This document shows positions 8,134 to 52,550 of a stretch of DNA of 58,058 nucleotides, piece by piece (the first letter of the stretch is position 1; every line of letters starts with the position of its first letter). The position numbers and the translations under genes were made by a program. This stretch comes from an uncultured Pseudomonadota bacterium (GTDB lineage Bacteria > Pseudomonadota > Alphaproteobacteria > Rs-D84): assembly GCA_949292385.1 (NCBI GenBank), contig CASEZC010000016.1, positions 1 through 58,058 of the forward strand. Reading direction: 5' to 3'. Below the pieces are notes generated by a model, which saw only the letters and a list, made by a program, of their open reading frames with translations, ran no database searches and was not told where the DNA came from.

Positions 8134-8162
8134 TATTTTGTGCGGGGTCAGAGGAGAAAATT

Positions 8163-30962: not shown

Positions 30963-30991
30963 AAAAAAGCGGCTTTTATGCCGCTTTTTTT
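30963..30991. terminator. Bidirectional terminator between the VirB2-like and DinD-like genes
   Basis: AAAAAAGCGGC-ttttat-GCCGCTTTTTTT. Confidence 0.8.
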
Positions 30992-31898
30992 ATCTTATGT
31001 TTATATTAGAGAATTGTTTTATAAATTCTTGTCTTTTATTATATAAATCTCTTCGCACATTTTTTATGTGTTCACTTGTTAAATCTTGTTCTGGGAAAAT
31101 CCCTTCTTTTTGAAATAGCTTTATTCTTTGTGAATTAAGTTCTTTTGTTACAGCGTATGAGAAGTCTCTTAATGTCATATTTTTGATTTCATCATATCTT
31201 TTAACAGCAATATTTAATGCTTTTTGTTTTGCCATCAAAGAACGCGAGCCCATATAGTTTGAAATAGGGTCGCCCGGTTCGTAGACTATGCCGTACATAT
31301 TTTTTAAAGTTTCTATATCAATGTCATAGAAAAATGATTTTTCCATCAGTTGATGAAATAATCCCATTTTTGCTTTGTGTCTGTATGCAATTCCGTTGAC
31401 TATTTTTTCAGAACTTGCCAAATCATTACGTAAATATATTCTGGAAAATTTATAAGACGCTTCACTTAAATCGGAAAAACTAGCGTTTGGCATCATAAAA
31501 TATAGTTCTGTAAATATTAGACGTGGGTTTCTTTTTAAAATAGACCAGCATGCAAATCTGCTTAATTTTGCATCGTGTCCATTTTGTATTTGTTTTATAC
31601 CTTTGTCTGTATTTATTGTGTAATTATGAATAATTGTTGTTAAATGTTTTGCATAAAAATCCCAAAAGTATTCTGGTGTTTCTATATCTTCTGGAGTTTT
31701 TCCTTTTGGAATCTTTAAAACAGCATCGCGTAATGCGGTATTTACTGTTTTTGGAATGAATTCGTTACTGCCTACGTTTTCTTTCCCGAATAAGTTGTAT
31801 AAATCTGAAAATAACCAATATTCAGTGTTTGTATTAGGAACTATATATTTTGTGTTATTTAAGTATTCAAATATTATTTGTGGTTTTGGACGTGGCAT
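30990..31898 (-). CDS. DinD-family (DNA-damage-inducible protein D-like) protein
   Basis: 302 aa. Blocks parallel E. coli DinD: KLSRFACWSILKRNP vs VLSRYACYLVVQNGDP, RIYLRNDLASSEKIV vs RLFLRNELKEHNKQLV, and NYMGSRSLMAKQKA vs DHMGSTELAANLFRA. Confidence 0.55.
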   Translation of the reverse strand: MPRPKPQIIFEYLNNTKYIVPNTNTEYWLFSDLYNLFGKENVGSNEFIPKTVNTALRDAVLKIPKGKTPEDIETPEYFWDFYAKHLTTIIHNYTINTDKGIKQIQNGHDAKLSRFACWSILKRNPRLIFTELYFMMPNASFSDLSEASYKFSRIYLRNDLASSEKIVNGIAYRHKAKMGLFHQLMEKSFFYDIDIETLKNMYGIVYEPGDPISNYMGSRSLMAKQKALNIAVKRYDEIKNMTLRDFSYAVTKELNSQRIKLFQKEGIFPEQDLTSEHIKNVRRDLYNKRQEFIKQFSNINIR

Positions 31899-37487: not shown

Positions 37488-37886
37488 TTATTCGTCTACA
37501 ACTGTTGTAGAGTTTCTGTTCTTTGCCCATACTTCTTCGCCAGTTCCTAAGTATTGTGGGCGTTCTTTACCGTAAGAAATAGTTTTTATTCTTTCTGGTT
37601 CAATACCATCTCTTATTAAAACATGGGCCGCATTTCCTGCGCGCAAAGCGCCAAGAGCCAAATTGTATTCAACAGAACCGCGTTCGTCGCAGTGACCTTC
37701 CAGAGTGATGTTCTTTCCCGGGTTCTTCTTCATGTACAAAGATTGCTTTTCTAAGTTTTCACGAGATTCTTCTGAAATATGTGCAGAATCAAATTCAAAA
37801 AATACTTTGTCTTCATTTATGTCTTTTGGTACGCCAGAACAAGCGGCTAAACTTAAAACTAGTATTGTAAATAACGCCTTTTTCAT
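37488..37886 (-). CDS. pal: Peptidoglycan-associated lipoprotein (OmpA-family)
   Basis: 132 aa from the ATG at 37886 (AAGGA 7 nt upstream). Lipobox LAAC. OmpA-like domain VFFEFDSAHI...LEGHCDERGSVEYNLALGALRA. Confidence 0.85.
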   Translation of the reverse strand: MKKALFTILVLSLAACSGVPKDINEDKVFFEFDSAHISEESRENLEKQSLYMKKNPGKNITLEGHCDERGSVEYNLALGALRAGNAAHVLIRDGIEPERIKTISYGKERPQYLGTGEEVWAKNRNSTTVVDE

Positions 37887-38007
37887 AATGATTCCTTTCA
37901 TTTTTATAATAATTTAACATTTATTAATAAAAGTTGTCAATAGACATTTTATGTTTTGTAAAGTGATTCGTTTTGTGTTACAATTCACAAAAAAGGAAGG
38001 AATGATT

Positions 38008-38733
38008 ATGAAAAATATTTTAAAGATTTTTGGCTTTTGTACTGCTTTGATTTCAACTGGTGCATATGCTGCACCTAGTTATTTGCAAAGGGATTCAAAC
38101 GGCGGGTATAACGTTACTTATGATTATACCGATAAAGCTAAGACAGGTTGGTATGTTGGTGGTCGTGCTGATTTGAATTTAATGAATTGGACAAATAAAT
38201 ATAATACAAATTGGCAAGACGAAGCTGTTAATGATGATTTTTCAGAAGATAAATATTCTTTTGAATCTTTGTTCGGTGGAAATTTTTATGCCGGTAAAAG
38301 ATTTGCTTATTTCTGGCGTGCAGAATTAGAAGCTGGATATATGGGGTATTTTGAAGATAAAGATAATTATGCAGAGTTTTCTTTGTCTATTCCTTATATG
38401 ATGGCGAATTTGTATTATGACTTTGTAAATGGTTTTTATGTTGGTGCCGGTGTTGGTGTTGCTATGCCAACAACTACTCTTGATGGTACTTTCTTTAAAT
38501 ATGAAAAAAGAAAAGAAACTGGTTTTTCACCTGTCGCAGGTATTATGCTGGGGTATTCTTATGAGTTAGATTATAACTTGACTCTGGATTTGCGTTATCG
38601 CTTTGCAGGTATGACAGGATTGAAACATAAGGTTGATATGGAAAATTATTTGAAAGAACAATTGGTTTTCGAAAATAAGATAGATGCAATTTTTGATAAT
38701 TCTTTATCAATTGGTTTAAGGTATGAATTTTAA
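38008..38733 (+). CDS. Small outer-membrane beta-barrel protein (Omp25/OmpA-beta-barrel-like)
   Basis: 241 aa from the ATG at 38008 (GGAAGGA upstream). Signal peptide ...GAYA-AP. Alternating aromatic/Gly beta-strand pattern. Terminal ...GLRYEF with C-terminal Phe. Confidence 0.7.
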   Translation: MKNILKIFGFCTALISTGAYAAPSYLQRDSNGGYNVTYDYTDKAKTGWYVGGRADLNLMNWTNKYNTNWQDEAVNDDFSEDKYSFESLFGGNFYAGKRFAYFWRAELEAGYMGYFEDKDNYAEFSLSIPYMMANLYYDFVNGFYVGAGVGVAMPTTTLDGTFFKYEKRKETGFSPVAGIMLGYSYELDYNLTLDLRYRFAGMTGLKHKVDMENYLKEQLVFENKIDAIFDNSLSIGLRYEF

Positions 38734-38819
38734 TTTTAGCAAAAAAGTTATTTTTGCTTGATAAAAGGTGTTGACCCGATTCGTTAAAAAATGGTATCGT
38801 TTAAATGATAGAGAGAGTT

Positions 38820-41270
38820 ATGAAAAACGAATTAAAAATATCTATTTTAACTATTGCGTGTGTGCTGTTTTGTGCGGCTGCAACTGATGCGTATTCTGCT
38901 TCGTCTGTTCGTTCTCTTGGAGGAACGGGAACTTATACAAGTGCGTCAAGTGCAGCCAATTCTGGTGCTTCGACGGCATCTTTGCGTGGTGGGTCAGTTC
39001 GTGTTGGTACAACAAGTAGTAGTTCTGGCAGTGTTGCAAAACCTGTTGGAACAACTTCTACTGGTAGTGTTGTTACTACGCCACGTTTATCTATAGGTCA
39101 ATATCTTGGTGGTGGAACGTCTATTAGTGGTGGCAGTTCTCTTAGGCCACAGACTCCTGGTTCTGGTTCTTCTTCTGGTGGTGGTGCGATTGCCCCGGGT
39201 GTTACAGAGGGGTTACAGCGTGATGTTGATCAGTTAAAACGTGATGTTGAAGGGTTGAATAGTAGGGCAGATTCATTAGAAGATAGTTTGGATAATAAAC
39301 AGGAAACTTTATTACCTACGCCAGATGGTTATATTGTTATAGATGAAAGAACTAATGAAATTTTTGTCGATGTTGAAAATTTAAAAGACGCTATAGGTAT
39401 TGTAGCTGGTCAGGATGGTAGAGAAGTTGAGATTGGTTCTAATTCTACTCATTTGTTATGGCGTTATGTAGGCGAACCTACGTGGAATGAATTGATTTCT
39501 TTGGAAGAAATTCGTGGTCCGCAGGGTGAACAGGGACCTCAGGGTGAGCCTGGAACGCCTGCGGATATGTCTGCATATTCTACGACCGTTGAAATGAATG
39601 CGGCTATACAAGATGCGATTGATTTGGCTTCTGCAAATTATGCGACAAAAGCTGATTTGGACAGCAAGGTTAATGTTGGTGATGTTTATACGAAGTCAGA
39701 AACTTACACGAAAAGTGAAGTCGAACAGAAAATTGCTGATGCTGCGCTTGATGGCGAAGTTGATTTAAGTTCTTATGCGACAAAGGATGAATTGAATTTA
39801 AAAGCTGATAAAACGGAGTTAGCAAATTATGCAACTACGGATTCTGTTAATACGGCATTAGGGGATAAAGCTGATAAAACAACTGTTGAAGCATTGTCTG
39901 GTCGTGTTGATGGTATTGCTGATGATGCTGCAGCGGCTGGCGTATTGGCTGGACAAGCAAATGTTGCTGCAGAGGCTGCAAAGTCAGAAGCTGACAAAGC
40001 TAATCAGGCATTGGCTGGAAAAGCTGATAAGTCTGAGTTGGCTGGATATGCGACGACGGAAGCTTTAGAGGCTAAGGCGGATAAATCTGAATTGATAAAT
40101 CTTGCGACAAAAGATGAGCTTGCCACAAAAGCAAATGCAGGAGATGTTTATAAAAAATCAGAAACTTATAGTGCTGCTACGATTGATGAAAAAATAGCCG
40201 AGGCAGCAACTGGCGGCGAAGTTGATTTGTCCGGATATGCACAAAAAATTTATGTTGATGAACAGTTGGCAACAAAAGCTGATAAGGTATCATTGGATTC
40301 AAAAGCTGACAAATCAGAATTAACAAATCTTGCGACTAAGGAAGAATTGGCGGATAAGGCAGATGTGTCTGCTTTGGGGGCTTATGCTACAACGGAATCT
40401 ATGAACGAGGCTTTGGCGAATAAGGCTGATGTTTCGGCGTTGAATGCAAAAGCTGATAAATCGGAATTGACGAATCTTGCAACCAAGGATGAGCTGGGGC
40501 AAAAGGCAGATGCTTCTGCTTTGGTTGGAAAGGAAGATACTTCTAATAAGGTTGTATCTGCAGAGTTTGATGGTGCTGTTGCTGATGATTCTAAGTATCC
40601 TACTGTTAAAGCTGTTGCCGATCAGTTGGCAAAGAAGCAGGAAGCAGGTGATTATGCATTGAAGTCTGATTTGGACAATGTTGTTACGGAAGAAGATTTA
40701 GGGAATTATGCGACGAAAGACGAGTTGTCTGGGTATGCTTCTAAGTCTGAATTGGAAGGTAAGGCTGATGCTGAAACAGTTACAACGCTGGAATCTCGTG
40801 TTAGCGCGAATGAAGCTGGCATAAGTGGTTTGAATACAAAAGTTGGTTCAGGAGAGTTAACTACGACTTCAAAAGAAGTTATTGGTGCTATTAATGAATT
40901 GAAAACAAAAACTGATGGTATGGCAACTGACGGTAATTTTGAAGAAATGAATCAAAAAATTACTCAGATGGAACAGAAAGTTGATGGTGCTGTTTCAAGT
41001 ATAGAAGGTAAGGCAGAAAAGACTTATGTTGACGAGCAGTTGGCAACCAAGGCAAACGAAGCCGAATTGGGTGCATTGGCTAAGAAGGAACAAGTAAAAG
41101 ATGCTGATGTTGCTGCTGATGCTGCAATATCTCGTACAAAGTTAGCTGCAGATGTTCAAGAATCATTACAAAAAGCGGATTCTGCAATAAGTATAGAGGG
41201 TGCAGGTTCTAATAAAATTCTTGGAACTGATGAAAATGGTGATGAAGTTTGGTATTCAATAGCGTTTTAA
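38820..41270 (+). CDS. Exported fibre-like repeat protein 1 (Ser/Gly-rich linker, tail-fibre-like module, short collagen tract, long YATK/KADK repeat shaft)
   Basis: 816 aa from the ATG at 38820 (the ORF-track start at 38805 is possible). Signal peptide ILTIACVLFCAAATDAYSA. Contains GPQGEQGPQGEPGTP and more than 15 copies of the motif [SE]L.[NG][YL]ATK.EL..KADK. One D-D-S-K-Y-P-T-V-K-A-V motif. C-terminus KILGTDENGDEVWYSIAF. Confidence 0.8.
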   Translation: MKNELKISILTIACVLFCAAATDAYSASSVRSLGGTGTYTSASSAANSGASTASLRGGSVRVGTTSSSSGSVAKPVGTTSTGSVVTTPRLSIGQYLGGGTSISGGSSLRPQTPGSGSSSGGGAIAPGVTEGLQRDVDQLKRDVEGLNSRADSLEDSLDNKQETLLPTPDGYIVIDERTNEIFVDVENLKDAIGIVAGQDGREVEIGSNSTHLLWRYVGEPTWNELISLEEIRGPQGEQGPQGEPGTPADMSAYSTTVEMNAAIQDAIDLASANYATKADLDSKVNVGDVYTKSETYTKSEVEQKIADAALDGEVDLSSYATKDELNLKADKTELANYATTDSVNTALGDKADKTTVEALSGRVDGIADDAAAAGVLAGQANVAAEAAKSEADKANQALAGKADKSELAGYATTEALEAKADKSELINLATKDELATKANAGDVYKKSETYSAATIDEKIAEAATGGEVDLSGYAQKIYVDEQLATKADKVSLDSKADKSELTNLATKEELADKADVSALGAYATTESMNEALANKADVSALNAKADKSELTNLATKDELGQKADASALVGKEDTSNKVVSAEFDGAVADDSKYPTVKAVADQLAKKQEAGDYALKSDLDNVVTEEDLGNYATKDELSGYASKSELEGKADAETVTTLESRVSANEAGISGLNTKVGSGELTTTSKEVIGAINELKTKTDGMATDGNFEEMNQKITQMEQKVDGAVSSIEGKAEKTYVDEQLATKANEAELGALAKKEQVKDADVAADAAISRTKLAADVQESLQKADSAISIEGAGSNKILGTDENGDEVWYSIAF
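39516..39560 (+). repeat. Collagen-like Gly-X-Y tract (5 triplets) inside fibre protein 1
   Basis: Translates to GPQ GEQ GPQ GEP GTP. Immediately preceded by DGREVEIGSNSTHLLWRYVGEPTWNELISLEEIR. Confidence 0.85.
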
Positions 41271-41283
41271 AAGGGAAAAATAA

Positions 41284-43230
41284 ATGAGAAAAGGAAGTGT
41301 GATTTTTTCTGGTTTTATGGGAGCTCTGTTATTGAGTTATGGCGCCCGCGCTGCAGATGCACAGATTGCCAGCAAGCAATATGTTGATAACAAAGAAACC
41401 GCTATATTGGAAACGGTAAGCAGCACGTATGAAACAAAAGAAAATGTTACAAATTTAACGGAACAAGTAACACAGTTGGGTGATACTATTAATAATCCAG
41501 AGTCTGGTTTGTCTTCTAAGTTAGATAAGGCTGCTCAGGATGCATCTGATGCAAAGGGTGCCGTTGATGCTTTAACAGTTACTGTTGAGGGTAAGGAAGA
41601 TAAATCTAATAAAGCCGCTTCTATTTCTGTAAAAAATCAATCTTCACCAGATCAGTATCCTTCTGTTGGTGCTATCGTTCAGTGGACTAATGATAAGATT
41701 AATAAGTTGTCAGAAACTGGGTTGCCAGTTAGTCCAGATAACATCGGTGAAGGCGCGATAACAACAGAAAAAATTGCAAATGATGCAGTTACAGAAGATA
41801 AATTAAGTAATGATGTTGTTAGCAAAATTGATGGTAAAGAAGATAAAACAAACAAGATACAAAGCATAACGCCTGAATCTACTGCTGATCAGTATCCATC
41901 TGCAGTTGCTGTACGTGACGCGTTGGCCAATAAGGTAGATTCTTCTGCGCTTTCAGAATATGCAACGACAGAAGCGATGAACTCTGCACTCGAGGGTAAA
42001 GTTGATGATGCAGAAATTTCCGATATGTTGACCAAGACAGTTGCTTCTTCAACATATGAAACCAAGACTAATGCTTCATCTAAATATGCAACAAAGACAG
42101 AATTGTCTGGCTATGCGACTACTGCACAATTAGGACAAAAAGTTGAAGCTAACGTTGCAATAGAACCAGGTACCGGCACAAAGGTTACTTATGACGCGAA
42201 GGGGTTGGTAACGGGCAGTGAAAGTTTGTCTGTATCTGATTTGCCGGATAGCATACCGACTTCGAAGATAGACGGCTTGGCGACCGTTGCTACTACGGGA
42301 TCTTATAACGATTTGTCTGATAAACCTGTTATTCCAGAAGGTGCAGTTATTGATGCAGAATTGACACCAGAAGGAACTAATGCTGTTCAGGGTAAGGTTA
42401 TTTATGAGGCTTTGCAGGGCAAGCAGGATAAAGGTGATTACGCAACAAAAACTGAATTAACAGATGGTTTAGCTGAAAAGGCCGACAAAACAGCTTTGGA
42501 CAATTATGCAACAACTGAAACAGTTAATTTAAAAGAAGATAAATCAAATATTGTTCAGACTGTTCGTTCTTCGGCGGAAGCGGAAAAAACGAAGTATACA
42601 TCTGAAAAAGCTGTTGCAACGGCATTGGAAGGTAAGGCAGATACGAGTGCTTTAGATGCGTTGGCAACAAAAGAAGAGCTTGAACAAAAGGCTGATGCGT
42701 CTGCTTTGTCTGCGTATGCAACAACAGAGGCGATGAACAGTGCGTTGGCTAATAAAGCTGATTCTTCTGCTTTGACTGAAGGTCTGGCTAAAAAAGAAGA
42801 TTCTGCAAATAAAAGAATAGTTGTTCGTGATTCTGAAACAGCAACAGATACAGACTATCCATCTGAAAAAGCTGTCAGAACAGAGTTGGATAAGAAAGCA
42901 AACAAAGGTACTACACTTGCAGAATATGGCATTACTGATGCTTACACCAAAGGTGAAACTGATTCTGCAATTACAAGTGCTGTGGAAGGTGTTGTTGCCG
43001 GAGATTTTTCTGATGCAATGAAAGGAAAAGAAGACACATCAAATAAAACTACAGTGATAGATTCTTCTAATAAAACATCTACAGATAAATATACTAGTGT
43101 AAAAGCAGTAGTAGATTACGTAATCCCGAAACCTGATGTTTCTTGTCAGGCAGAATCAAACTTGTGTGTATTATCGGTCGACAGGGATGGTAATATAAAG
43201 TGGGTAAACGTAACAGAACCTGCACAATAA
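41284..43230 (+). CDS. Exported fibre-like repeat protein 2
   Basis: 648 aa. Signal peptide ...LSYGARA-ADAQIASKQYVD. Five copies of a [DK]-Y-[PT]-S-x-x-A-[VI] motif and YATT/YATK repeats. C-terminal Cys pair SCQAESNLCVLSVDRDGNIKWV. Confidence 0.8.
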   Translation: MRKGSVIFSGFMGALLLSYGARAADAQIASKQYVDNKETAILETVSSTYETKENVTNLTEQVTQLGDTINNPESGLSSKLDKAAQDASDAKGAVDALTVTVEGKEDKSNKAASISVKNQSSPDQYPSVGAIVQWTNDKINKLSETGLPVSPDNIGEGAITTEKIANDAVTEDKLSNDVVSKIDGKEDKTNKIQSITPESTADQYPSAVAVRDALANKVDSSALSEYATTEAMNSALEGKVDDAEISDMLTKTVASSTYETKTNASSKYATKTELSGYATTAQLGQKVEANVAIEPGTGTKVTYDAKGLVTGSESLSVSDLPDSIPTSKIDGLATVATTGSYNDLSDKPVIPEGAVIDAELTPEGTNAVQGKVIYEALQGKQDKGDYATKTELTDGLAEKADKTALDNYATTETVNLKEDKSNIVQTVRSSAEAEKTKYTSEKAVATALEGKADTSALDALATKEELEQKADASALSAYATTEAMNSALANKADSSALTEGLAKKEDSANKRIVVRDSETATDTDYPSEKAVRTELDKKANKGTTLAEYGITDAYTKGETDSAITSAVEGVVAGDFSDAMKGKEDTSNKTTVIDSSNKTSTDKYTSVKAVVDYVIPKPDVSCQAESNLCVLSVDRDGNIKWVNVTEPAQ

Positions 43231-43312
43231 ATAACAAAAAACGAAAAAAAGTTATTACATTAAAATTAAAAAAAAGATAAAATAAAAATAAATTAAGGAA
43301 AGGAAAGAGAAA

Positions 43313-44719
43313 ATGAAAAAACTAACATCCACTATTTTTGCGACTTTATTAACCGTAGTATCTGTTAATGCAGCAAACGCAGAAATCGCTTCAAAAGGCT
43401 ATGTCGACGAGGAAGTTGGCAAAGTTAATACTGCATTAGAAGGTAAAGTTGATGATGCAGAAATTTCTGATATGTTGACCAAGACAGAAGCAACATCAAC
43501 TTATGAAACAAAATCTCATGCTACTGCAACTTATGCAACAAAGACGGAATTAGCTGGTAAAGCAGATACAACAGCATTAACAGCAAAACAAGATGTAGCT
43601 AATTTGGTTAATTCGGCAGGATTTGAAGGAGCAAAAACAGATGATGCGAAATACCCATCTGTAAAAGCTGTTGCGGATGCAATCACAAAAGCTACAGAAG
43701 GTATCGCATCTGATGAAGTTGTTAGTGCGTTGGGTGAACGTGTAACAACGGCAGAAGGTGAAATTGATGCTTTGCAAACAGGTAAAGCCGATAAAGCAAC
43801 TTCTTTGGCAGGCTATGGCATAACAGATGCTTATACAAAAGGTGAATCTGATGGAAGATATGCAACAGCTGCACAAGGTGCTTTGGCAGATAGTGCTTTG
43901 CAGAAACAGGGCGTATTAACACAAGGAAACTTGTTAACGACAGATGCAACCGGAAAAATTATAGACGCTGGTAAGAAGGGCGCTTTGGCTGCAAAAGACA
44001 CTGTCGCTGCAGACGATATCGCAGCAAATGCTGTAACAACTGCAAAAATTTTAGATGGAAATGTAACAAAAGCAAAATTAGCTACAGAAGTTCAGGCTTC
44101 CTTGGGTAAAGCAGATACTGCACTTCAAGCGGATGCGATTGCAGATATGTTGACCAAGACAGAAGCAACATCAACTTATGCAACAAAGACGCAATTAGCT
44201 GGTAAAGCAGATACAACTGCATTGACCGCAAAAGAAGATGTTGGGAATAAAGTTAATGCTGCAAACTATGAAGCCAATAAAACAAATGATACAAAATATC
44301 CAACTGTAAAGGCTGTTGCAGACGCAATCACAAAAGCTACAGAAGGTATCGCATCTGATGAAGTTGTTAGTGCGTTGGGTGAACGTGTAACAACGGCAGA
44401 AGGTGAAATCGATACTTTGCAGTCAGATGTTTCTGCTAATAAAACTGCAATTGGTACAGTTGGCAGCTTAACTACAGAAGAAAAAACTAATTTGGTTGGT
44501 GCAATTAATGAAGTAGATGCAAATGCAAATGCAGCTAAAACTGCAGCAGATGCTGCACAAAGCACGGCTGATCAAGCAAAAGCAACAGCTGATAAGGCGA
44601 TACCGGCTCCAACACCAGAATGTACAAATTTGGGTGCGAAATGTGTATTAGTTGTTGGTAATGATGGATATGCATGGGAAGTTATTCAAAGAGGAACTTC
44701 TGAAGGTGGTCAACCATAA
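43313..44719 (+). CDS. Exported fibre-like repeat protein 3
   Basis: 468 aa. Signal peptide ...VSVNA-ANAEIASKGYVD. An internal ~100-aa module is present twice. C-terminal Cys pair ECTNLGAKCVLVVGNDGYAWEV. Confidence 0.8.
   Translation: MKKLTSTIFATLLTVVSVNAANAEIASKGYVDEEVGKVNTALEGKVDDAEISDMLTKTEATSTYETKSHATATYATKTELAGKADTTALTAKQDVANLVNSAGFEGAKTDDAKYPSVKAVADAITKATEGIASDEVVSALGERVTTAEGEIDALQTGKADKATSLAGYGITDAYTKGESDGRYATAAQGALADSALQKQGVLTQGNLLTTDATGKIIDAGKKGALAAKDTVAADDIAANAVTTAKILDGNVTKAKLATEVQASLGKADTALQADAIADMLTKTEATSTYATKTQLAGKADTTALTAKEDVGNKVNAANYEANKTNDTKYPTVKAVADAITKATEGIASDEVVSALGERVTTAEGEIDTLQSDVSANKTAIGTVGSLTTEEKTNLVGAINEVDANANAAKTAADAAQSTADQAKATADKAIPAPTPECTNLGAKCVLVVGNDGYAWEVIQRGTSEGGQP
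43469..43764 (+). repeat. Intragenic direct repeat, copy 1 (fibre gene 3)
   Basis: Matches 44144-44409. 84 nt are identical (43681-43764 = 44326-44409). Copy 1 carries a 30-nt insertion encoding ETKSHATATY. Confidence 0.9.
44144..44409 (+). repeat. Intragenic direct repeat, copy 2 (fibre gene 3)
   Basis: See copy 1. Both encode ...DMLTKTEATSTY..ATKT.LAGKADTTALTAK.DV....KYP.VKAVADAITKATEGIASDEVVSALGERVTTAEGEID. Confidence 0.9.
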
Positions 44720-44832
44720 TACGATAAAATAAGAAAAATCTGACTTAAAAGTCTTTCATGATTTTTAAGTCAGAAAAATAAATTCTAAAATTGCAGTTAG
44801 TTGGTATTATTTTGTAATAGAATAGATTTGAT

Positions 44833-46359
44833 ATGATAAAAACAAAATTTGTTTTTGCGGTTTCATTTTTAGCACTGTTTGTTGCAACTGATTATGCGTT
44901 TGGTGCAATCGCGTCCAGTGGATATGTTGATCAACAGGTGGATACTCGTTTGTCAAGTATAACGGGTTCAACGACCGGTGAAGGTAACGTTGTTACAGAA
45001 GTTACTGCTAGTGGTGGTGCGATAACTGCAACCAAAGGTATAAATGCCGAGGTTACATCAAATAAAGCAACTGCAGAGAGCGTTGTTGCTGATGATAAAG
45101 GTAGTACGGAAAAGTATCCGTCTGTTGCAGCCGCAGAAAAAATTGCCGAGGTTGCAGCGCAGACAGCATCAGAAAATTCATTACAAAAAGATGGTGCTTT
45201 AACAGAGGGCAATTTATTAAAATCTGACGCCAGTGGTAAAGCGGTAGATTCTGGTGTTGCCAGTGATAAGGTTTTAACCAATACTGCAACAGGTGCAGGG
45301 GCTTTGGGGGTAAATGCAGATTCTTCAGGTAATAATTCAATAGCAATTGCGGGAAGCCGTTCTTCTGGTACTTTTGCTTCAGGAACTAATAGTATAGCGA
45401 TTGGTAATAGTTTTGGATATGGAGGAAATGTCGTAGCAGAAGGGAGTAATTCTATTGCGCTTGGAACTAACTCTTATTCGGGTGCTGATTATGCCATACA
45501 GCTAGGTAGAGGCTCAAACAGCGAGGCAAATACATTTAGTGTGGGGTTGTCGGATTCTAATAACTATAAACTGCTTGGTTCGGATGGTAAGATACCTGCA
45601 GAAAGATTACCTTTTGAAGGTGATGTTTTAACTAACACCGCAACTGGCAGTGATTCTTTCAGTACTGGTGGCGCAATACCTGTTACTTCTGAAGGGGCGG
45701 TTGTTTTGGGGGCTTCGTCTTCAACTTCTGGTAATGCATCGGTGGTTGTTGGTAGTTCTTCATCTGCTACAAATGATTTTTCTACAGCTTTGGGGCCTAA
45801 TACAAATGTTACAGCTACAGGAGGTACTGCTGTTGGTAACGCCGCAAAAGTGGCTGCAGAAAGTGCTATACAATTAGGATATGGAACTAATAATGAAGCT
45901 AATACGCTTAGTGTAGGTTTGTCTGTTGATAATAACTATAAACTGCTTGGTTCGGATGGTAAGATACCGGTGGAACGCATGCCGTTTGAAGGTACTGTTG
46001 TAACTAATACTAATCCTTCTGGATTTGCTATAGGCGGTGCCGATGGAGGTTATAATGGATTTGCTATAGGTGTTGCTGCAAATGGTGGCGGATACGGTGT
46101 TGCTGTTGGACCTGGTAGTTCTGCTGATAATTACTCTGTATCTGTCGGACGTAATGCGAAATCTTCAAATGGTGGCATACAAATAGGTACTGGTACAAAT
46201 AGTGAGGATAATACTCTTAGTATAGGTTTGTCTAGCTCTAATAACTATAAACTGCTTGGGTCGGATGGGAAGATTCCATCGGAAAGATTGCCGGCGGCTA
46301 TGATTCCAGTTGGCAGTTCTACTTCACCAACCAGTTATGCGACGTTCTGGATTGAATAA
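44833..46359 (+). CDS. Exported fibre-like repeat protein 4 (three tandem Gly/Ser/Asn-rich head-like modules)
   Basis: 508 aa. Signal peptide ...VATDYAFG-AIASSGYVD. One EKYPSVAAA motif. Three modules each end in NT[FL]S[VI]GLS..NNYKLLGSDGKIP.ER[LM]P. GSNSIALG / TNSIAIG repeats resemble YadA-type head repeats. Confidence 0.8.
   Translation: MIKTKFVFAVSFLALFVATDYAFGAIASSGYVDQQVDTRLSSITGSTTGEGNVVTEVTASGGAITATKGINAEVTSNKATAESVVADDKGSTEKYPSVAAAEKIAEVAAQTASENSLQKDGALTEGNLLKSDASGKAVDSGVASDKVLTNTATGAGALGVNADSSGNNSIAIAGSRSSGTFASGTNSIAIGNSFGYGGNVVAEGSNSIALGTNSYSGADYAIQLGRGSNSEANTFSVGLSDSNNYKLLGSDGKIPAERLPFEGDVLTNTATGSDSFSTGGAIPVTSEGAVVLGASSSTSGNASVVVGSSSSATNDFSTALGPNTNVTATGGTAVGNAAKVAAESAIQLGYGTNNEANTLSVGLSVDNNYKLLGSDGKIPVERMPFEGTVVTNTNPSGFAIGGADGGYNGFAIGVAANGGGYGVAVGPGSSADNYSVSVGRNAKSSNGGIQIGTGTNSEDNTLSIGLSSSNNYKLLGSDGKIPSERLPAAMIPVGSSTSPTSYATFWIE
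45271..46296 (+). repeat. Three tandem in-frame coding modules in fibre gene 4
   Basis: Modules start near 45271, 45625 and 45997. The 39-nt tract TAATAACTATAAACTGCTTGGTTCGGATGGTAAGATACC is identical at 45558-45596 and 45930-45968. A slightly diverged third copy lies at about 46240-46278. Spacing is 372 nt, then 309 nt. Confidence 0.9.
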
Positions 46360-46364
46360 TAAAT

Positions 46365-46391
46365 AACCGCCATTATGGCGGTTGTTTTTTT
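46365..46391 (+). terminator. Rho-independent terminator after fibre gene 4
   Basis: AACCGCCA-tta-TGGCGGTT followed by GTTTTTTT. Confidence 0.8.
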
Positions 46392-49794: not shown

Positions 49795-49812
49795 TTTAAA
49801 AGGGTTTAGGTT

Positions 49813-50205
49813 ATGTTTAAAGATATTATTAGGTATGCTTTTATTGCTCCTTTTTTGTATTTGGGTAAAGATATAAAAGAATATAAAAAGTTGGGGTATT
49901 TGGTAGAAGACGCAAAAATAGAAGCGGATGTTGCACGTGAAAAAATAACCAAGGTTTATTATGGCGATAAAATTGGGTTATCTTGTTTTAAAGTGTGTGA
50001 AGCTTTTGTAGAAAAAAAGAATAATCCAGATTATGAGTTTTCTTTTTCTCAAGAAAGAAAGTGTGTGTTTGTTGATAATTGCGATAAAAAATATTGTCCT
50101 TTTTATCAGAAACGCCAAGAATACGTTCAGCTTGTATCTAAGTTTAGAGAATTGCTTGAGGTTAAAAGGAATTTTTGGCTTAAAAAATTAGAGAAGTTTA
50201 GATAA
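49813..50205 (+). CDS. Small Cys-containing protein, tandem paralogue 1 of 4 (unknown family)
   Basis: 130 aa. N-terminal IIRYAFIAPFLYLGKDIKEYKK. Central C-x5-C-x4-C (CVFVDNCDKKYC). C-terminal KRNFWLKKLEKFR. RBS AAAGGG upstream. Confidence 0.7.
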   Translation: MFKDIIRYAFIAPFLYLGKDIKEYKKLGYLVEDAKIEADVAREKITKVYYGDKIGLSCFKVCEAFVEKKNNPDYEFSFSQERKCVFVDNCDKKYCPFYQKRQEYVQLVSKFRELLEVKRNFWLKKLEKFR

Positions 50206-50222
50206 TAAAAGAGGTATGGTTT

Positions 50223-50615
50223 ATGTTAAAAGGGTTTATAAAGTATTTTTTTGTTGCACCATATAAGTATATAAAAAGAGATATAGAAGATTATAAAGAC
50301 CTAAAGAGAGATATAAAAAACTTGAATATAGGTCTTGTGGACGCTTTGTCGGATATCACTTTTTGCCGTGATGAAGCAGAACCTTCTTGTGGGTGTGTTA
50401 CTAATTATATTTATTATATAGGTAAAGGTCCGGAAATAAAAAGGTTAGGTTATTATAAACGGAGTTGTCCGAATTTTAATGGCAGACCATGCAAAAAAGA
50501 AGAATGTCTTTATAGTTTAGCGAATCATAAGTATTATGGGATTAGGGAAGAATTAAATAAAAAGAAGCAATTAAAAAAGAATTTTTGGATAAATAAATTA
50601 CAAAAAATAAAATAA
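50223..50615 (+). CDS. Small Cys-containing protein, tandem paralogue 2 of 4
   Basis: 130 aa. N-terminal FIKYFFVAPYKYIKRDIEDYKD. Central CPNFNGRPCKKEEC...HKY. C-terminal KKNFWINKLQKIK. Confidence 0.7.
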   Translation: MLKGFIKYFFVAPYKYIKRDIEDYKDLKRDIKNLNIGLVDALSDITFCRDEAEPSCGCVTNYIYYIGKGPEIKRLGYYKRSCPNFNGRPCKKEECLYSLANHKYYGIREELNKKKQLKKNFWINKLQKIK

Positions 50616-50635
50616 AAAAAGAAAGAGTATAGAAG

Positions 50636-51040
50636 ATGAACTTAGTAAAATATGTAATAAAAACACCATTGAAAACAATTTTTAATGAAATTTTAAATTA
50701 TAGACATTTGTCTGAATTGTGTGAGGCAGAACGTAAACGTTGTGAAGATGCTTTGCTGGTTGCAACAAATATTTATAAAGAGAAAAGCGATAACTTCGGT
50801 AAAGATTGTGATGGTTGTTATGTAAAGTGGATAGAAAAAAGAAGAAATGATTTTGATGATGTTGAAGTAAAAGTTCATGATTATAAATGCTCAAAGTTTA
50901 GCATGAATGTTCCTTGTGATAATAAAAATTGCAGATATCATAAGATGAATAATTTGCTGCATGAGTATTTAGAGGAATATGAACATTGCAAAAAACAGAA
51001 GAGAGATTTTGTATATAACATAAACGAAAGAATAAAATAA
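50636..51040 (+). CDS. Small Cys-containing protein, tandem paralogue 3 of 4 (most divergent)
   Basis: 134 aa. N-terminal LVKYVIKTPLKTIFNEILNYRH. Central CSKFSMNVPCDNKNCRYHK. C-terminal KRDFVYNINERIK. Confidence 0.65.
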   Translation: MNLVKYVIKTPLKTIFNEILNYRHLSELCEAERKRCEDALLVATNIYKEKSDNFGKDCDGCYVKWIEKRRNDFDDVEVKVHDYKCSKFSMNVPCDNKNCRYHKMNNLLHEYLEEYEHCKKQKRDFVYNINERIK

Positions 51041-51091
51041 AATTTTGGAAGGAAAGGAATACTGTTTTTATATTTTATAAAGGAAGTAAAT

Positions 51092-51514
51092 ATGTATAAA
51101 TTTTTAAAATATCTTGTCAGTACTCCATTGTCGATCGTCGTTGAAGATTTTAAAGCTTATAACACGATAAGCAAAGAATGTAAGGATTTGCGTCGTGATT
51201 ATGTATCTACAAGAATGGAATTGGTAGCTTTATATAACGCAGAGAAATTTGTTGATAATAAAGATAAAATATCTTGTATATCAAGAAAAATTTATGCAGC
51301 CGAAGATAGGGCTTTTCCTTTTAAAATAAATTCTGTCGTATCGAAAAGTTTTTGTCCTAAGTTTACACCAGCTTATTCTGAAAAGGCGTGTGAATGCAAA
51401 GATTGTCCGTGTGTAGAAAAAAATCATAAATACAATTTAGCAATGCAAAAGTATAATGCTGCTGTGTGTAAGAAAAACGCGTTCTGGGAAGAAAAATTTC
51501 AGAACTTAAAATAA
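51092..51514 (+). CDS. Small Cys-containing protein, tandem paralogue 4 of 4
   Basis: 140 aa. N-terminal FLKYLVSTPLSIVVEDFKAYNT. Central CPKFTPAYSEKACECKDCPCVEKNHKY. C-terminal KKNAFWEEKFQNLK. Confidence 0.7.
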   Translation: MYKFLKYLVSTPLSIVVEDFKAYNTISKECKDLRRDYVSTRMELVALYNAEKFVDNKDKISCISRKIYAAEDRAFPFKINSVVSKSFCPKFTPAYSEKACECKDCPCVEKNHKYNLAMQKYNAAVCKKNAFWEEKFQNLK

Positions 51515-51542
51515 TAACCTTATTTAAATTAGGGTGGAAAAA

Positions 51543-52550
51543 ATGGCGCATCAATTCTTTTTTAACCCGTATATATTAGATAACTTGCCGGCACCAAGTA
51601 AGGGGTTTGATGTCGTGCAAGATTTGTCGGAGCCAAGATTGCGCCTTTATATAACCAGCCGTGGCGTTAAGAGTTTTTTTGTGCGTAAGCGTGTTCATGG
51701 ACATGATAAAAGAATTATAATAGGTAAATATCCAGATATTGATATTGAAGAAGCACGCGCAAAAGTCCCTGAAATTTTAGAACAGGCTTCTAAAAAAATA
51801 CCGATTCGGCATAAACAAATATCTGTTAAAAAATTATTTGATTTGTATTTAGAAAATAAAGTTAGACGTAATTGGTATTCTAAAGATAAGTTAGAACGTG
51901 CTATTGATAGACACTTGGTAAAGCTTTTTGATAAAAAAGTTGCTGATGTTTCTGCTGAAGATGTGTCGGCGGTTATATCTGAAATACAAGGACGTGCAAT
52001 TGCTGGGCGCATGCAAGAATTATTGCAAAGCGTTTTTAACTATGCAATTGATATGGGGTATACAAAGACTAATCCTGTGCGCGGATTACAGAAAATAGAA
52101 CAAACGCGCCGTATAAGACCTTTGAATAAGTCAGGGTTACAAAAGTTATTTGCTGCTATAAATCAGGAAGAAAATCAGACGTTAAGAGCCGCGTTTTTAA
52201 TGCTTATTTACGGGTTTGCGCCAAAATCAAAAATATTTTCTATGCAGTGGCAAGACCTTGATTTTAATCACTATACTTGGAATGGAATGCCTTTGTCTGA
52301 TGCCGCTGTCGTCGTTTTGCAAGACTTGCCTCAAGATGGGGTGTGGGTGTTCCCTGGTAGAGGAATGGGGCATCTTACCGACCCAAGAGTTGCATGGAAA
52401 AAAATAATAGATGCGGCAGGTGTAAAAAATTTGACTATGGATGACGTTTATAAGTTTATGTCACGCAGGTTAATATGGGCTTCTGATAAAGAAGATTTTC
52501 GTAATAATATGAATAATTTAATCGAAGATTTTACTTCGGAAACATTTTAA
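51543..52550 (+). CDS. P4-type tyrosine-integrase homologue lacking the catalytic residues (degenerate or exapted)
   Basis: 335 aa from the ATG at 51543. The N-terminal arm-binding (DUF4102-like) domain is intact (LPAPSKGFDVVQDLSEPRLRLYITSRGVKSFFVRKRV...IIIGKYPDIDIEEARAK). Box I reads LIYGFAPKSKIF instead of LLTGxRxxE. Box II reads TMDDVYKF instead of xHDLRRT. There is no Tyr in the final ~30 residues. Confidence 0.65.
   Translation: MAHQFFFNPYILDNLPAPSKGFDVVQDLSEPRLRLYITSRGVKSFFVRKRVHGHDKRIIIGKYPDIDIEEARAKVPEILEQASKKIPIRHKQISVKKLFDLYLENKVRRNWYSKDKLERAIDRHLVKLFDKKVADVSAEDVSAVISEIQGRAIAGRMQELLQSVFNYAIDMGYTKTNPVRGLQKIEQTRRIRPLNKSGLQKLFAAINQEENQTLRAAFLMLIYGFAPKSKIFSMQWQDLDFNHYTWNGMPLSDAAVVVLQDLPQDGVWVFPGRGMGHLTDPRVAWKKIIDAAGVKNLTMDDVYKFMSRRLIWASDKEDFRNNMNNLIEDFTSETF

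Follow-up and report, generated by a model that had tools for sequence, protein, structure and literature searches.

A lineage-wide chromosomal operon of putative exported trimeric fibres in Candidatus Enterousia

Introduction

The locus considered here raises the question of what four neighbouring genes, built from phage-tail-fibre-like repeats and bearing predicted signal peptides, could do in a bacterial chromosome. It lies in a 58-kb stretch of DNA (58,058 nt, below the window) from Candidatus Enterousia, an uncultured gut bacterium of the order Rs-D84 (Alphaproteobacteria). Genomes of Rs-D84 are smaller than 1 Mb and lack respiration and standard transporters, and dependence on a partner organism is suspected (PMC12306168).

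Results

Organization of the locus

As described in an initial reading of the DNA (below, the sequence-only reading), the four genes (F1 to F4) follow each other on the plus strand, 3' of a small outer-membrane beta-barrel (OMP) gene, and are closed by a strong terminator; they span 7.55 kb, and both the open reading frames and the terminator stem with its T-run agree with this description (Table 1). The F1 frame extends from 38805 or 38820 to 41270, yielding 821 aa, or 816 if translation begins at Met6, the start that agrees with the orthologues. By Pfam, the upstream neighbours are pal, ftsE, ftsX, DUF218 and plsC, and the downstream ones are a VTT/YqaA gene, rbfA, a GNAT gene and lepA. The fibre operon is situated head-to-head with pal, with tolB and ftsEX nearby, a neighbourhood equally compatible with a periplasmic envelope role. 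The operon has no known dedicated secretion genes next to it. A TcpQ-like/secretin gene pair is present in the window at 7198-9791; genes for a type II secretion ATPase, platform or pseudopilins were not seen within the window. The count of promoter-like sites around the candidate promoter is not above that in shuffles.

The OMP of the window has weak matches to Pfam Opacity (0.0015) and NCBIfam Rick_Adr, and its orthologues match PF13505 (OMP_b-brl); no YadA_anchor, Omp85 or POTRA signatures were found among its Pfam and NCBIfam profile matches.

Table 1. Features of the fibre locus, in window positions
Feature	Positions	Strand	Remarks
Candidate sigma-70-like promoter	37882..37910	+	Divergent pal/OMP intergenic region; TTCATA-17-TATAAT, 10/12 matches; weak evidence
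Small outer-membrane beta-barrel protein (OMP)	38008..38733	+	241 aa from MKNILK; signal peptide, aa 1-21; C-end LSIGLRYEF, beta-signal-like
F1, class A fibre	38820..41270	+	816 aa
F1 predicted signal peptide	38820-38897	+	
F1 N-domain	38898-39158	+	Conserved, Ser/Gly/Thr-rich, three Arg motifs; N-domain alignment
F1 coiled coil	39210-39317	+	
F1 phage-like beta domain	39408-39560	+	With 5 Gly-X-Y triplets
F1 stalk	39561-41192	+	Beta-layer alpha/beta coiled coil
F1 C-terminal hairpin	41214-41267	+	KILGTDENGDEVWYSIAF
F2	41284..43230	+	648 aa
F2 predicted signal peptide	41284-41352	+	
F2 N-cap	41365-41388	+	IASKQYVD
F2 conserved N-terminal part	41365-41838	+	~160 aa; conservation profile
F2 hypervariable mosaic centre	41839-43047	+	Conservation profile
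F2 C-terminal part	43117-43227	+	Pro-x-Pro, C-x6-C and beta-hairpin
F3	43313..44719	+	468 aa
F3 predicted signal peptide	43313-43381	+	
F3 N-cap	43385-43408	+	IASKGYVD
F3 internal duplication	43520-43781, 44165-44426	+	262 nt
F3 coiled-coil repeats	43718-43777, 44363-44422	+	P22 gp26-like
F3 GYGITD module	43781-43903	+	Phage-tail-fibre module
F3 C-terminal hairpin	44597-44716	+	C-x6-C
F4	44833..46359	+	508 aa
F4 predicted signal peptide	44833-44904	+	
F4 N-cap	44908-44931	+	IASSGYVD
F4 three YadA-like beta-roll head units	45274-46299	+	DNA repeats, Pfam, AF2, Foldseek
F4 neck-like units	45493-45612, 45865-45984, 46174-46293	+	AIQLGxGTNSEANTLSVGL..NNYKLLGSDGKIPxERLP; close each head
F4 conserved C-end	46300-46356	+	IPVGS...YATFWIE
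Intrinsic terminator, bidirectional	46361..46387	.	Ends operon; 12-bp stem (5 GC pairs), 3-nt loop, T-run on + strand; also called on - strand

Modules of the fibre proteins

In BLASTP, F1, F2 and F3 match each other with E-values of 1e-28 to 1e-37, F4 being a more distant paralogue (1e-14 against F3). DNA-level repeats are observed both within and between the fibre genes, confirming module duplication and the suggested origin of all four as paralogues. The repeat motifs of the sequence-only reading are real, occurring far more frequently than in shuffles: F1 contains eight copies of [ILVMYF]A[TS][KT]x[DE] (0.13 expected) and 12 of KAD[KAVTS] (0.35 expected), and F2 contains five of Y[PT][ST]xxA[VIA] (0.02 expected). 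The F1 C-terminus was read correctly (ILGTDENGDEVWYSIAF), and so was the mature N-terminus common to F2, F3 and F4, which starts 1-4 residues past the predicted cleavage site. Other details have to be amended. The motif [DK]Y[PT][ST]xxA[VIA], counted nine times, is found seven times by the strict expression, and nine times only if Q is also permitted at the start, as in QYPS, which F2 contains twice. The cysteines of F2 and F3, given as seven or eight residues apart, are separated by six; and collagen-like repeats, listed as a building block of the family, reduce to the single run in F1.

The beta-layer consensus of trimeric alpha/beta coiled coils has been published for the stalks of trimeric autotransporter adhesins (TAAs) and for phage fibres, among them HylP1 with its AATKAYVD motif (PMC4786415). 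The sequences strongly indicate that YATKxEL, KADK and IASKxYVD are such beta-layers, and that IASKxYVD at the mature N-terminus of F2, F3 and F4 is an N-capping one, the same motif as HAATKAYVD of HylP1 from a Streptococcus prophage. The sequence-only reading had assigned the ATKxYVD-type motifs to phage and giant-virus fibres; they are not specific to phages, since beta-layers are also described for TAA stalks, which share the MATKDD and KADKAD types with the Enterousia fibres (PMC4786415). It is strongly indicated that every recognisable module, that is, the beta-layer coiled coils, the F1 collagen run and the F4 heads and necks, folds only as a homotrimer, and from the motifs and monomer models we infer trimerisation of F1-F4.

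F1 yields profile matches to phrog_19741 (1.5e-32) and phrog_19976 (2e-9) and matches PDB 5apz, the beta-layer construct of Tcar0761. The AF2 model of F2 is poor overall (pLDDT 50.7), with the hairpin strands E628-632 and E638-642 at pLDDT of about 73. YKLLGSDGKIP is present in three copies in F4, the AF2 monomer model of which has pLDDT above 90 over residues ~150-490. The modelled fold is that of a TAA YadA-like head: the best PDB matches in Foldseek are TAA heads (BpaC 7o23, 7e-7, followed by BoaA, CbpF and YadA), the best structural matches also include YadA-like-head proteins of phages and giant viruses, and Pfam YadA_head is matched at 1.5e-4, under the gathering threshold.

Signal peptides and export

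Signal peptides were assessed heuristically, from the n-region charge, the best 12-residue Kyte-Doolittle window and a small-x-small cleavage site. This strongly indicates type-I Sec signal peptides on all four proteins, as claimed earlier: the n-region is positively charged in 4/4, the best window scores 2.2-2.85, compared to 0.5-1.0 in the cytoplasmic controls lepA, rbfA and ftsE, and the predicted cleavage sites are at residues 23-26. These features are kept in orthologues from ~20 genomes. Since each of F1-F4 carries such a predicted signal peptide, the proteins would be exported unfolded into the periplasm; the paired cysteines of F2 and F3 are compatible with an oxidising compartment. 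No lipobox, recognised outer-membrane translocator domain, S74 domain or N-terminal phage (virion) attachment domain was found in F1-F4. The YadA anchor, PF03895, is not matched at E<=1 by any of the four and is absent from the Pfam annotations of 240 listed homologues.

Conservation and divergence of the locus

A scan of genome contigs yielded 18 loci from uncultured Alphaproteobacteria and Candidatus Enterousia MAGs. The gene order, OMP followed by an F1-type gene and two to eight or more fibre genes, is kept in ~25 related genomes, and every locus long enough for both flanks retains the synteny plsC-DUF218-ftsX-ftsE-pal / OMP-F1-F2-F3-F4 / yqaA-rbfA-(GNAT)-lepA. The linkage of the fibre cluster to the OMP gene, noted previously in the window, is constant: the latter directly precedes the F1-type gene in all related loci examined, also where the flanks differ. 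In L027 and L029, the OMP, class-A and downstream passenger genes are still linked, although the neighbours differ on at least one side.

Between related loci, most flank proteins share 65-95% identity; the fibre proteins are 30-50% identical in their best local segments (F4-type occasionally higher over short stretches) and differ both in length, F1-type ranging from 373 to 915 aa, and in copy number (three in L029, five in L025, seven in L026 and at least eight in L030). According to the conservation profile, F2-type proteins have conserved termini and a variable centre, and P0025 is chimeric, joining an F1-type N-terminus to an F2-type C-terminus. In strain L031, with flanks 99.0-100% identical to the window, F1 has 27 additional codons, F3 is split, and F4 has four head units compared to three. 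Between the window and L031, pN equals 0.0082 in the fibre genes and 0.0013 in the flanks, and pS 0.039 and 0.017, respectively. The pN/pS of the fibre genes (0.21, from small counts) is well below 1; thus, the point substitutions give no evidence for positive selection. That the family is diversifying, as had been suggested, is seen in repeat indels, head-unit rearrangement, the chimera and the variable centres. The C-terminal tips are conserved, the opposite of the pattern in many adhesins and phage receptor-binding proteins.

Relation to phages

A Pfam scan covering nearly every ORF of at least 150 aa found no phage structural genes in the window, the recognisable ORFs being housekeeping, and none were seen among genes called around the cluster in related loci. 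This agrees with the flanks having been read as free of phage genes, and the homologues in ~25 related genomes indeed reside at one chromosomal locus, outside prophage tail modules. A tblastn search of 50,697 phage genomes gave two marginal matches for F1 and none for F2, and the C-terminal hairpin pattern had no match in IMG/VR. The sole phage-related match among the genes scanned in the window and the related loci is a conserved integrase-like remnant by lepA.

Modules of F3 and F4 do, however, also occur in real phage tail fibres lacking signal peptides. Such relatives carry PF12571, Collar and Phage_fiber_2; the GYGITD module of F3 is common to P2-type PF12571/Collar fibres, the F3 coiled-coil repeat resembles that of the P22 gp26 needle, and P0204, a fibre with the YadA-head and NNYKLLxSDGxIP module of F4, is encoded in a contig carrying a terminase gene. 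As the motifs are shared with TAA stalks and the F4 head is of the TAA type, a domesticated phage fibre is one possible, undemonstrated origin. The proteins show almost no similarity to GenBank phages.

Discussion

With moderate confidence, we consider the locus to be a lineage-wide chromosomal operon of Candidatus Enterousia / Rs-D84, encoding an OMP and exported homotrimeric surface fibres for adhesion or a coat; the fibre proteins are probably surface attachment fibres. The C-terminal beta-hairpin, presumably disulfide-braced in F2 and F3, would be the last part out of the Sec translocon and probably registers the three chains, perhaps in a foldon-like role, although both sequence tests of foldon likeness were negative. 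The TcpQ-like/secretin pair is a candidate route across the outer membrane. The trimers would be displayed as cell-surface fibrils that could attach the bacterium to partner cells or host material, or coat it; they would probably be retained via the always-linked beta-barrel protein and the Ser/Gly/Thr-rich N-domain of F1-type proteins. The conserved ends would be needed for assembly and docking, the exposed centre varying by module duplication, exchange and repeat indels. Such fibres would present adhesin and phage-fibre building blocks in exported, fast-changing trimers without any known membrane anchor, in a genome smaller than 1 Mb.

Alternatively, the proteins could remain in the periplasm as struts or tethers linking outer membrane, peptidoglycan and inner membrane. 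They would then be analogous to the trimeric Lpp coiled coil, though longer, and act with Pal, TolB and the OMP. The combination of a signal peptide with the absence of an outer-membrane translocator or anchor domain is in line with this, as are the position by pal, tolB and ftsEX, a weak Pfam match of F3 to Alanine_zipper (Lpp-like, 0.0097), and the conservation of both termini, as for a strut docked at two ends. However, 440-790 mostly extended residues would measure, by estimate, tens of nanometres, far more than the periplasm width; length, copy number (three to eight or more) and centre vary between close relatives and even strains, which is typical of exposed proteins; and wherever YadA-like heads and phage-fibre modules have been characterised, they are binding modules outside the cell. 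Moreover, pal and ftsEX are not required, given the other neighbours in L027 and L029. Hence we regard periplasmic fibres as unlikely. Quite unlikely, in turn, are classical TAAs with an anchor diverged beyond recognition, or supplied in trans by the upstream beta-barrel (split type V). TAAs (type Vc; YadA, BpaC, SadA, OMP100) and F1-F4 do have in common a signal peptide, mosaic repeats and a passenger-type architecture of YadA-like heads, neck-like connectors and beta-layer stalks, and a beta-barrel gene is invariably adjacent, but the C-terminal 12-stranded (3 x 4) barrel of TAAs is absent from F1-F4 and the 240 listed homologues, in agreement with the missing PF03895 match. Each C-terminus is one hairpin of 20-40 residues, where a TAA would have a coiled coil and then four beta-strands, and one barrel gene would have to suffice for three to eight or more fibre genes. 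Members of the OMP_b-brl/Opacity/Adr family, which this OMP resembles, are small barrels, too narrow for trimer passage.

Finally, a prophage, gene transfer agent (GTA), tailocin or extracellular contractile injection system encoded elsewhere in the genome might use the four proteins as its tail or head fibres. The PHROG matches, the signal-peptide-less relatives and the terminase-bearing contig point in this direction, and GTA fibre genes can sit apart from the main cluster. Nevertheless, this is highly improbable: particles assembled in the cytoplasm use no Sec-exported fibres, whereas signal peptides are predicted on 4/4 proteins and kept in orthologues; the virion-attachment domain was not found in F1-F4, nor phage structural genes in the scanned ORFs of the window or in related loci; the locus has a fixed core-genome position across the order; the phage genomes gave just the two marginal matches for F1 and none for F2; and the host genomes are below 1 Mb.

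By analogy, the surface fibres proposed here seem functionally closest to the mosaic adhesive trimers (MAT) of Bdellovibrio bacteriovorus, homology being not demonstrable. MAT fibres are signal-peptide-bearing, multi-paralogue mosaic trimers of phage/TAA type, as the Enterousia fibres appear to be, and have been shown on the cell surface, without a known anchor (PMC10769870). The sequence-only reading recognised no described system, which is partly right: Sec-exported, mosaic trimeric fibres of phage/TAA type lacking a known anchor are a concept established with the MAT proteins (PMC10769870), but the defining features of MAT are lacking here. Both groups are chromosomal, outside prophages and without a recognised membrane anchor, and each has one conserved end that presumably presents the fibre on the cell. 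MAT proteins have a conserved ~130-aa beta-rich N-domain, whereas in F2-F4 a beta-layer and coiled coil come first, and in F1 the Ser/Gly/Thr-rich N-domain; MAT shafts are, by description, intertwined beta-helices and beta-prisms, whereas alpha/beta coiled coils predominate in Enterousia; and variable MAT tips (S74, TNF-like, lectin) contrast with short conserved C-terminal hairpins and a variable centre. Solved MAT tips have no sequence match to F1-F4 at E<=1. Unlike MAT, the Enterousia fibres are encoded by a fixed operon that includes an OMP gene, and the host is no known predator.

The Lcl protein of Legionella pneumophila, a trimeric fibrous collagen-like adhesin with a Sec signal peptide and no membrane anchor, is type II-secreted via a secretin; the Enterousia window also has a secretin gene, but none of the ATPase, platform or pseudopilin genes of a type II system were seen there. 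Lcl consists mostly of collagen repeats and a globular C-terminal domain, whereas collagen is marginal in the Enterousia fibres. Phage fibres lack a signal peptide, have an N-terminal virion-attachment domain and are encoded in tail modules, none of which is true of the Enterousia fibres. The phage fibre HylP1, with its similar N-cap motif, is itself a homologue of the TAA short neck.

The fibre operon and its genomic setting

The operon that comprises a small outer-membrane beta-barrel gene (OMP) and four tandem fibre genes (F1-F4) is a real, non-random feature. As judged from sequence, F1-F4 represent an order-wide, previously uncharacterised family of predicted exported, anchorless trimeric fibres, in which the OMP gene and the class-A partner (the F1-type subunit) are conserved. 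A degenerate-pattern scan covering one genome per species yielded 18 loci, all of them in MAGs of uncultured Alphaproteobacteria or Candidatus Enterousia from animal guts. For some fibre relatives, the source is a MAG with the label 'Rickettsiales bacterium' and the annotation simply that of a hypothetical protein; we found no description of F1-F4-type proteins in the literature, their relatives being listed as 'hypothetical protein' only.

Features of the fibre operon, with positions in the window
Feature	Position	Remarks
OMP gene	38008-38733	same strand as F1-F4
F1	38820-41270	816 aa from the Met used by orthologues; 821 aa from the first ATG
F2	41284-43230	648 aa
F3	43313-44719	468 aa
F4	44833-46359	508 aa
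Terminator	46361-46387	12-bp stem and T-run, 3' of F4

In the NCBI taxonomy, Enterousia is a genus in Alphaproteobacteria incertae sedis; the order Rs-D84, to which GTDB assigns it (PMC12306168), is also present in termite guts. The genomes of this group are smaller than 1 Mb and encode neither a TCA cycle nor respiration nor standard transporters; the bacteria are suspected of depending on a partner organism (PMC12306168).

At all loci whose length covers both flanks, we observed the same gene order, plsC-DUF218-ftsX-ftsE-pal, OMP-F1-F2-F3-F4 and yqaA-rbfA-(GNAT)-lepA, and the operon occupies this fixed core locus in about 25 genomes. Most flank proteins of relatives share 65-95% identity with their counterparts in the window, and the fibre proteins share 30-50% (best local segments), with widely varying lengths; for F4-type genes the identity is occasionally higher over short stretches. 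In more distant relatives, the number of fibre genes is 3, 5, 7 or at least 8. At two loci, L027 and L029, the neighbours differ, yet the OMP gene, the class-A gene and the downstream passenger gene stay together. These observations strongly indicate a core-genome operon linked to an OMP gene.

Nearly all window ORFs of at least 150 aa were scanned with Pfam, and the recognisable ones were housekeeping genes (among them gatA-like amidase, suf, plsY, dprA, dnaA, gyrB, dnaJ, uvrC, dnaN, ppa, efp, fba, tolB, lepA, fabF and mltG). No capsid, tail, baseplate, terminase or lysis genes were detected among the scanned ORFs of the 58-kb window, which bears out the earlier claim that the cluster is not surrounded by phage structural genes.

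Predicted export signals and trimer-specific modules

Signal peptides were called by a heuristic based on the charge of the n-region, a hydrophobic h-region and small-x-small cleavage sites. All four fibre proteins have a positively charged n-region, a best 12-residue Kyte-Doolittle window of 2.2-2.85 (vs 0.5-1.0 for lepA, rbfA and ftsE) and small-x-small sites at residues 23-26, and the same features recur in fibre orthologues from about 20 genomes. This pattern strongly indicates predicted Sec-type signal peptides on F1-F4, in agreement with the sequence-only reading.

F1, F2 and F3 are clear paralogues (BLASTP E 1e-28 to 1e-37), and F4 is more distant. Repeats are also seen at the DNA level: F3 has an internal duplication of 262 nt, F4 contains three units of 159 nt, and F2 and F3 have a 158-nt segment in common. 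The protein motifs noticed by the sequence-only reading do occur in F1-F4, far above the shuffled-sequence expectation, although some details had to be corrected. The KYPS motif is present, but the strict regular expression gives seven occurrences instead of nine, two further sites starting with Q; the cysteines claimed to be spaced by seven or eight residues are in fact arranged as C-x6-C; and the collagen-like repeats exist as one run of five Gly-X-Y triplets, restricted to F1. A profile of the KYPS module (KEDxxNK...YPSxKAV) produced chance matches alone against PDB.

Trimeric alpha/beta coiled coils can be N-capped by a beta-layer with the sequence [aliphatic]-A-T-K-[polar]-[DE] and C-capped by one with the sequence KADKAD; beta-layers are present in TAA (trimeric autotransporter adhesin) stalks and in phage fibres, and 'HAATKAYVDKAI' of HylP1 is tabulated as a homologue of the TAA short neck (Hartmann et al. 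2016, PMC4786415). F1 has a phmmer match to the Tcar0761 construct (PDB 5apz) and contains eight ATK-type and twelve KADK-type motifs, vs 0.13 and 0.35 expected from shuffles; at the sequence level, ATK- and KADKAD-type motifs recur within its heptad segments. The beta-layer consensus (PMC4786415) accounts for the YATKxEL...KADK repeats, and the shared mature N-terminus IASKxYVD would likewise be the N-terminal beta-layer cap (N-cap) of a trimeric coiled coil. F3, in turn, has a match to the coiled-coil repeat of gp26, the tail needle of P22. Predicted trimer-specific modules are strongly indicated throughout the fibre proteins, and F1-F4 are very probably exported homotrimeric fibres.

F4 heads and modules shared with phage fibres

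F4 has a confident AF2 model (mean pLDDT 78.7; above 90 over residues ~150-490) with three beta-roll units. Its best Foldseek matches in PDB are YadA-like heads of TAAs (BpaC 7o23, 7e-7; BoaA, CbpF, YadA, EibD, UspA1); among viral structures, phage and giant-virus proteins with YadA-like heads match best. The unit AIQLGYGTNSxANTLSVGL..NNYxLLxSDGxIP is common to F4 and to distant relatives without a signal peptide, one of which is encoded on a 45-kb contig with a terminase gene.

The exhaustive HMMER search with F3 returned 1183 cluster representatives at E<=1e-3. Among the best 148, 60 carry a signal peptide and the N-cap and are of the Enterousia type, and 77 are without a signal peptide as judged by that heuristic. 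Of the 77, the majority align via the F3 149-198 module (KADKATSLAGYGITDAYTK), and N-termini like those of phage fibres are seen in several. Eight signal-peptide-less F3 matches were analysed with Pfam, six of them having PF12571, Collar, Phage_fiber_2, PTR or Gp53-like_C. The tblastn search against 50,697 GenBank phages gave two marginal matches for F1 and none for F2; the Actinomyces phage match is an unannotated protein encoded between the lysin and integrase genes. PHROG matches of the fibre proteins are mostly to families without known function, and scanning IMG/VR with the C-terminal hairpin patterns produced no match. The cluster is a clear example of modules shared by phage fibres, TAAs and Sec-exported cellular fibres.

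Conserved ends and variable centres

Comparison of orthologues demonstrated conserved ends that are specific to each gene position. F1-type proteins have the invariant motifs ASSVRxLGGxGTY, VRGGSVRV and PRLSIGxYLGG in Ser/Gly/Thr-rich sequence after the signal peptide (alignment A6) and end with VLGTDxxGxxVWYEIA[MF]. The other three types (class B) start with the N-cap, which in the F2 type is followed by about 160 conserved residues. The F2-type C-terminus is PxPxxxCx6CVLSVxxxGxxxWVNVTxPA; the F3 type has a similar hairpin ending with WEVIxR, and the F4 type has IPVGSxxxxxYAxIWVE. The centre of F2 (residues ~190-600), on the other hand, has a column identity of 7-36% and low occupancy, explained by gain, loss and exchange of modules. 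The homologous protein P0025 is a chimera with an F1-type N-terminus and an F2-type C-terminus. Taken together, this strongly indicates that the centres diversify rapidly, as far as alignments can tell, while the ends stay conserved.

The same tendency was observed at the strain level. The flanks of the locus L031 are 99.0-100% identical to those of the window, yet its F1 has 27 extra codons and its F4 has four head units vs three. Between the two strains, pS of the fibre genes is 0.039 and pN 0.0082, vs 0.017 and 0.0013 in the flanks. Thus, the fibre genes evolve faster than their flanks, and the change is mostly structural. Positive selection was rejected, as pN/pS of the fibre genes (0.21) is raised over that of the flanks (0.08) yet remains below one, the counts being small. 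The F3 orthologue of this strain (L031 8488-9887) has 17 gap positions relative to the window, and its ORF is split into 292 and 165 aa; possible explanations are a pseudogene, phase variation and an assembly error.

A different passenger was observed at L027 (10810-17814), where the OMP gene and a 200-aa class-A protein gene are followed by a gene for a protein of 2334 aa. This protein carries a signal peptide, its mature N-terminus (AEIANVEYV) is similar to the fibre N-cap, and it contains many Cys-containing 'GCxxLTGSIPExLFAGI' repeats with the appearance of BspA-type leucine-rich repeats. This suggests that the locus can host another kind of passenger, and passengers appear to be interchangeable.

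Comparison with known fibre systems

F1-F4 contain no YadA anchor, S74 domain, phage attachment domain or lipobox. In TAAs, the YadA_anchor domain (PF03895) contributes four beta-strands per chain to a 12-stranded translocator barrel. F1-F4 have no PF03895 match at E<=1, this domain is absent from the precomputed Pfam lists of 240 fibre homologues, and the C-termini of F1-F4 are hairpins of 20-40 aa. At the same time, the N-terminal Sec signal peptide (by the heuristic) and the head, neck and coiled-coil stalk modules (from the F4 model and the beta-layer motifs) are TAA-like. Thus, F1-F4 share the passenger architecture of TAAs but not the defining anchor.

The closest system in function is the superfamily of mosaic adhesive trimers (MATs) of Bdellovibrio, mosaic trimeric fibres that bear signal peptides and combine phage-like with TAA-like parts, demonstrated on the cell surface, whose anchor has not been identified (PMC10769870). 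The MAT N-domain is beta-rich and about 130 aa long; such a domain is not apparent in the N-termini of F1-F4. Instead, F2, F3 and F4 start with IASKxYVD, and F1 with a Ser/Gly/Thr-rich region of about 90 aa; the AF2 monomer model of F2, which is poor (pLDDT 50.7) and makes a Foldseek search meaningless, is helical at residues 27 to 104. MAT C-termini are formed by the S74 chaperone/protease or by a variable globular tip (TNF-like, C-type lectin, beta-sandwich), whereas those of F1-F4 are short and conserved, with no Peptidase_S74 or tip-domain Pfam match; F1-F4 have no sequence match at E<=1 to the solved MAT tips. As both the N-domain and the S74 or variable tips are absent and no sequence similarity was detected, we do not assign F1-F4 to the MAT superfamily.

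Unlike the fibres of phages, prophages and GTAs, F1-F4 are encoded at a fixed core locus with housekeeping flanks, all four have signal peptides, and no PF12571 or similar attachment domain was found in them, whereas six of the eight signal-peptide-less relatives analysed with Pfam do have such phage-fibre domains. Hence F1-F4 share modules with phage fibres but differ in context, signal peptides and attachment domain.

Several other ways of anchoring or trimerisation were considered. Lipoprotein anchoring was rejected, as no lipobox precedes the Cys of the F1 signal peptide, in contrast to LAAC of pal. In Brucella, OMPs are covalently linked to peptidoglycan by N-terminal Ala-Asp; the mature fibre N-termini are not consistently Ala-Asp, and this linkage was rejected as well. 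The C-terminal hairpin resembles the pattern IPEAP...YVRKDGEWVLL of T4 fibritin. Homology to the foldon was not upheld, however: the profile search against PDB sequences retrieved no fibritin or foldon-fusion chain at E<=10, and the hhalign probability was 0.2%. The hairpin would be like the foldon in function only, by analogy. A PDB search with the OMP retrieved no relatives.

Possible mechanism of display

F1-F4 are probably surface adhesin or coat fibres. After Sec export, three chains would come into register via the C-terminal hairpin, the last segment out, which is likely disulfide-braced in F2 and F3; the N-terminal beta-layer possibly adds to the registration. The fibres would then appear on the cell surface, where they would act in adhesion or as a coat, and they would dock via the OMP and the class-A N-domain of F1. 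A tentative extension is that the OMP, the class-A subunit and the N-capped class-B fibres might constitute an undescribed surface-display system for passengers without an autotransporter domain, in which Sec-exported trimeric passengers are taken across, or docked onto, the outer membrane. If so, a genome-reduced, partner-dependent gut bacterium would hold its partner or host by this system. That the OMP serves a TAA system which is split or has diverged, a reading that overlaps with the previous variant, seems quite unlikely.

Alternatively, the fibres could be periplasmic struts, as a translocator is missing and the pal/tol neighbourhood fits; the length of the fibres, their hypervariability and the extracellular-type modules argue against this, and we consider it unlikely. 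That the fibres belong to a phage-derived particle encoded elsewhere is highly improbable: they carry signal peptides, their core locus is fixed, and the window scan revealed no structural genes.

Returning to surface display, the mechanistic question common to MAT fibres is how diderms export and retain TAA-like trimers without an autotransporter anchor. The invariant linkage of the OMP and class-A genes provides a concrete, testable candidate for the missing anchor, and the pair is a tractable handle on the display of such fibres. Rs-D84/Enterousia bacteria, which occur widely in the guts of humans, livestock, poultry and termites, are almost devoid of transporters and energy metabolism. As the fibre operon takes up ~0.8% of the genome, forms one locus order-wide and is reshuffled even between strains, it is a prime candidate for mediating their suspected dependence, and the most plausible attachment apparatus of this reduced-genome gut lineage.

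Other genes of the window

Two paired, isolated genes at 7198-9791 (+) encode a TcpQ-like protein (PF10671, 6e-18) and an outer-membrane secretin (PF00263, 9.5e-14), with no ATPase, platform or pilin genes of type II secretion or type IV pili seen nearby; dprA is at 11879-12892. The two genes may function in taking up DNA or in exporting folded proteins, the fibres for example. By analogy with the Legionella adhesin Lcl, a type II secretion substrate, the pair is a candidate outer-membrane route, although nothing ties it to the operon.

The sole phage-related item in the scanned ORFs is an integrase-like remnant (51534-52550, +) with Arm-DNA-binding and central phage-integrase domains only, no catalytic-domain match being listed. 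It has equivalents in the same position (lepA ... acpP-fabF) in relatives (L004 18202-19200, L025 14996-15994 and L031 16877-17884, the latter 100% identical), and has the appearance of an integrase that was domesticated or has degenerated, not of a mobile-element marker. The interval between lepA and this gene (~49800-51530) has GC 0.30 vs about 0.37 in the window and contains small ORFs only; relatives have 2-4 small genes without known function there. A conserved protein of ~300 aa (30990-31898, -, and upstream) has no Pfam match in the window; its equivalents in L001 and L004 adjoin a gene for a CopG-like antitoxin, immediately upstream of tolB. Finally, 23571-25628 (+) encodes an AsmA/YhdP-like protein (PF05170, 2.6e-15); this gene, pal, tolB and the OMP gene jointly confirm that the bacterium with this reduced genome has a diderm envelope.
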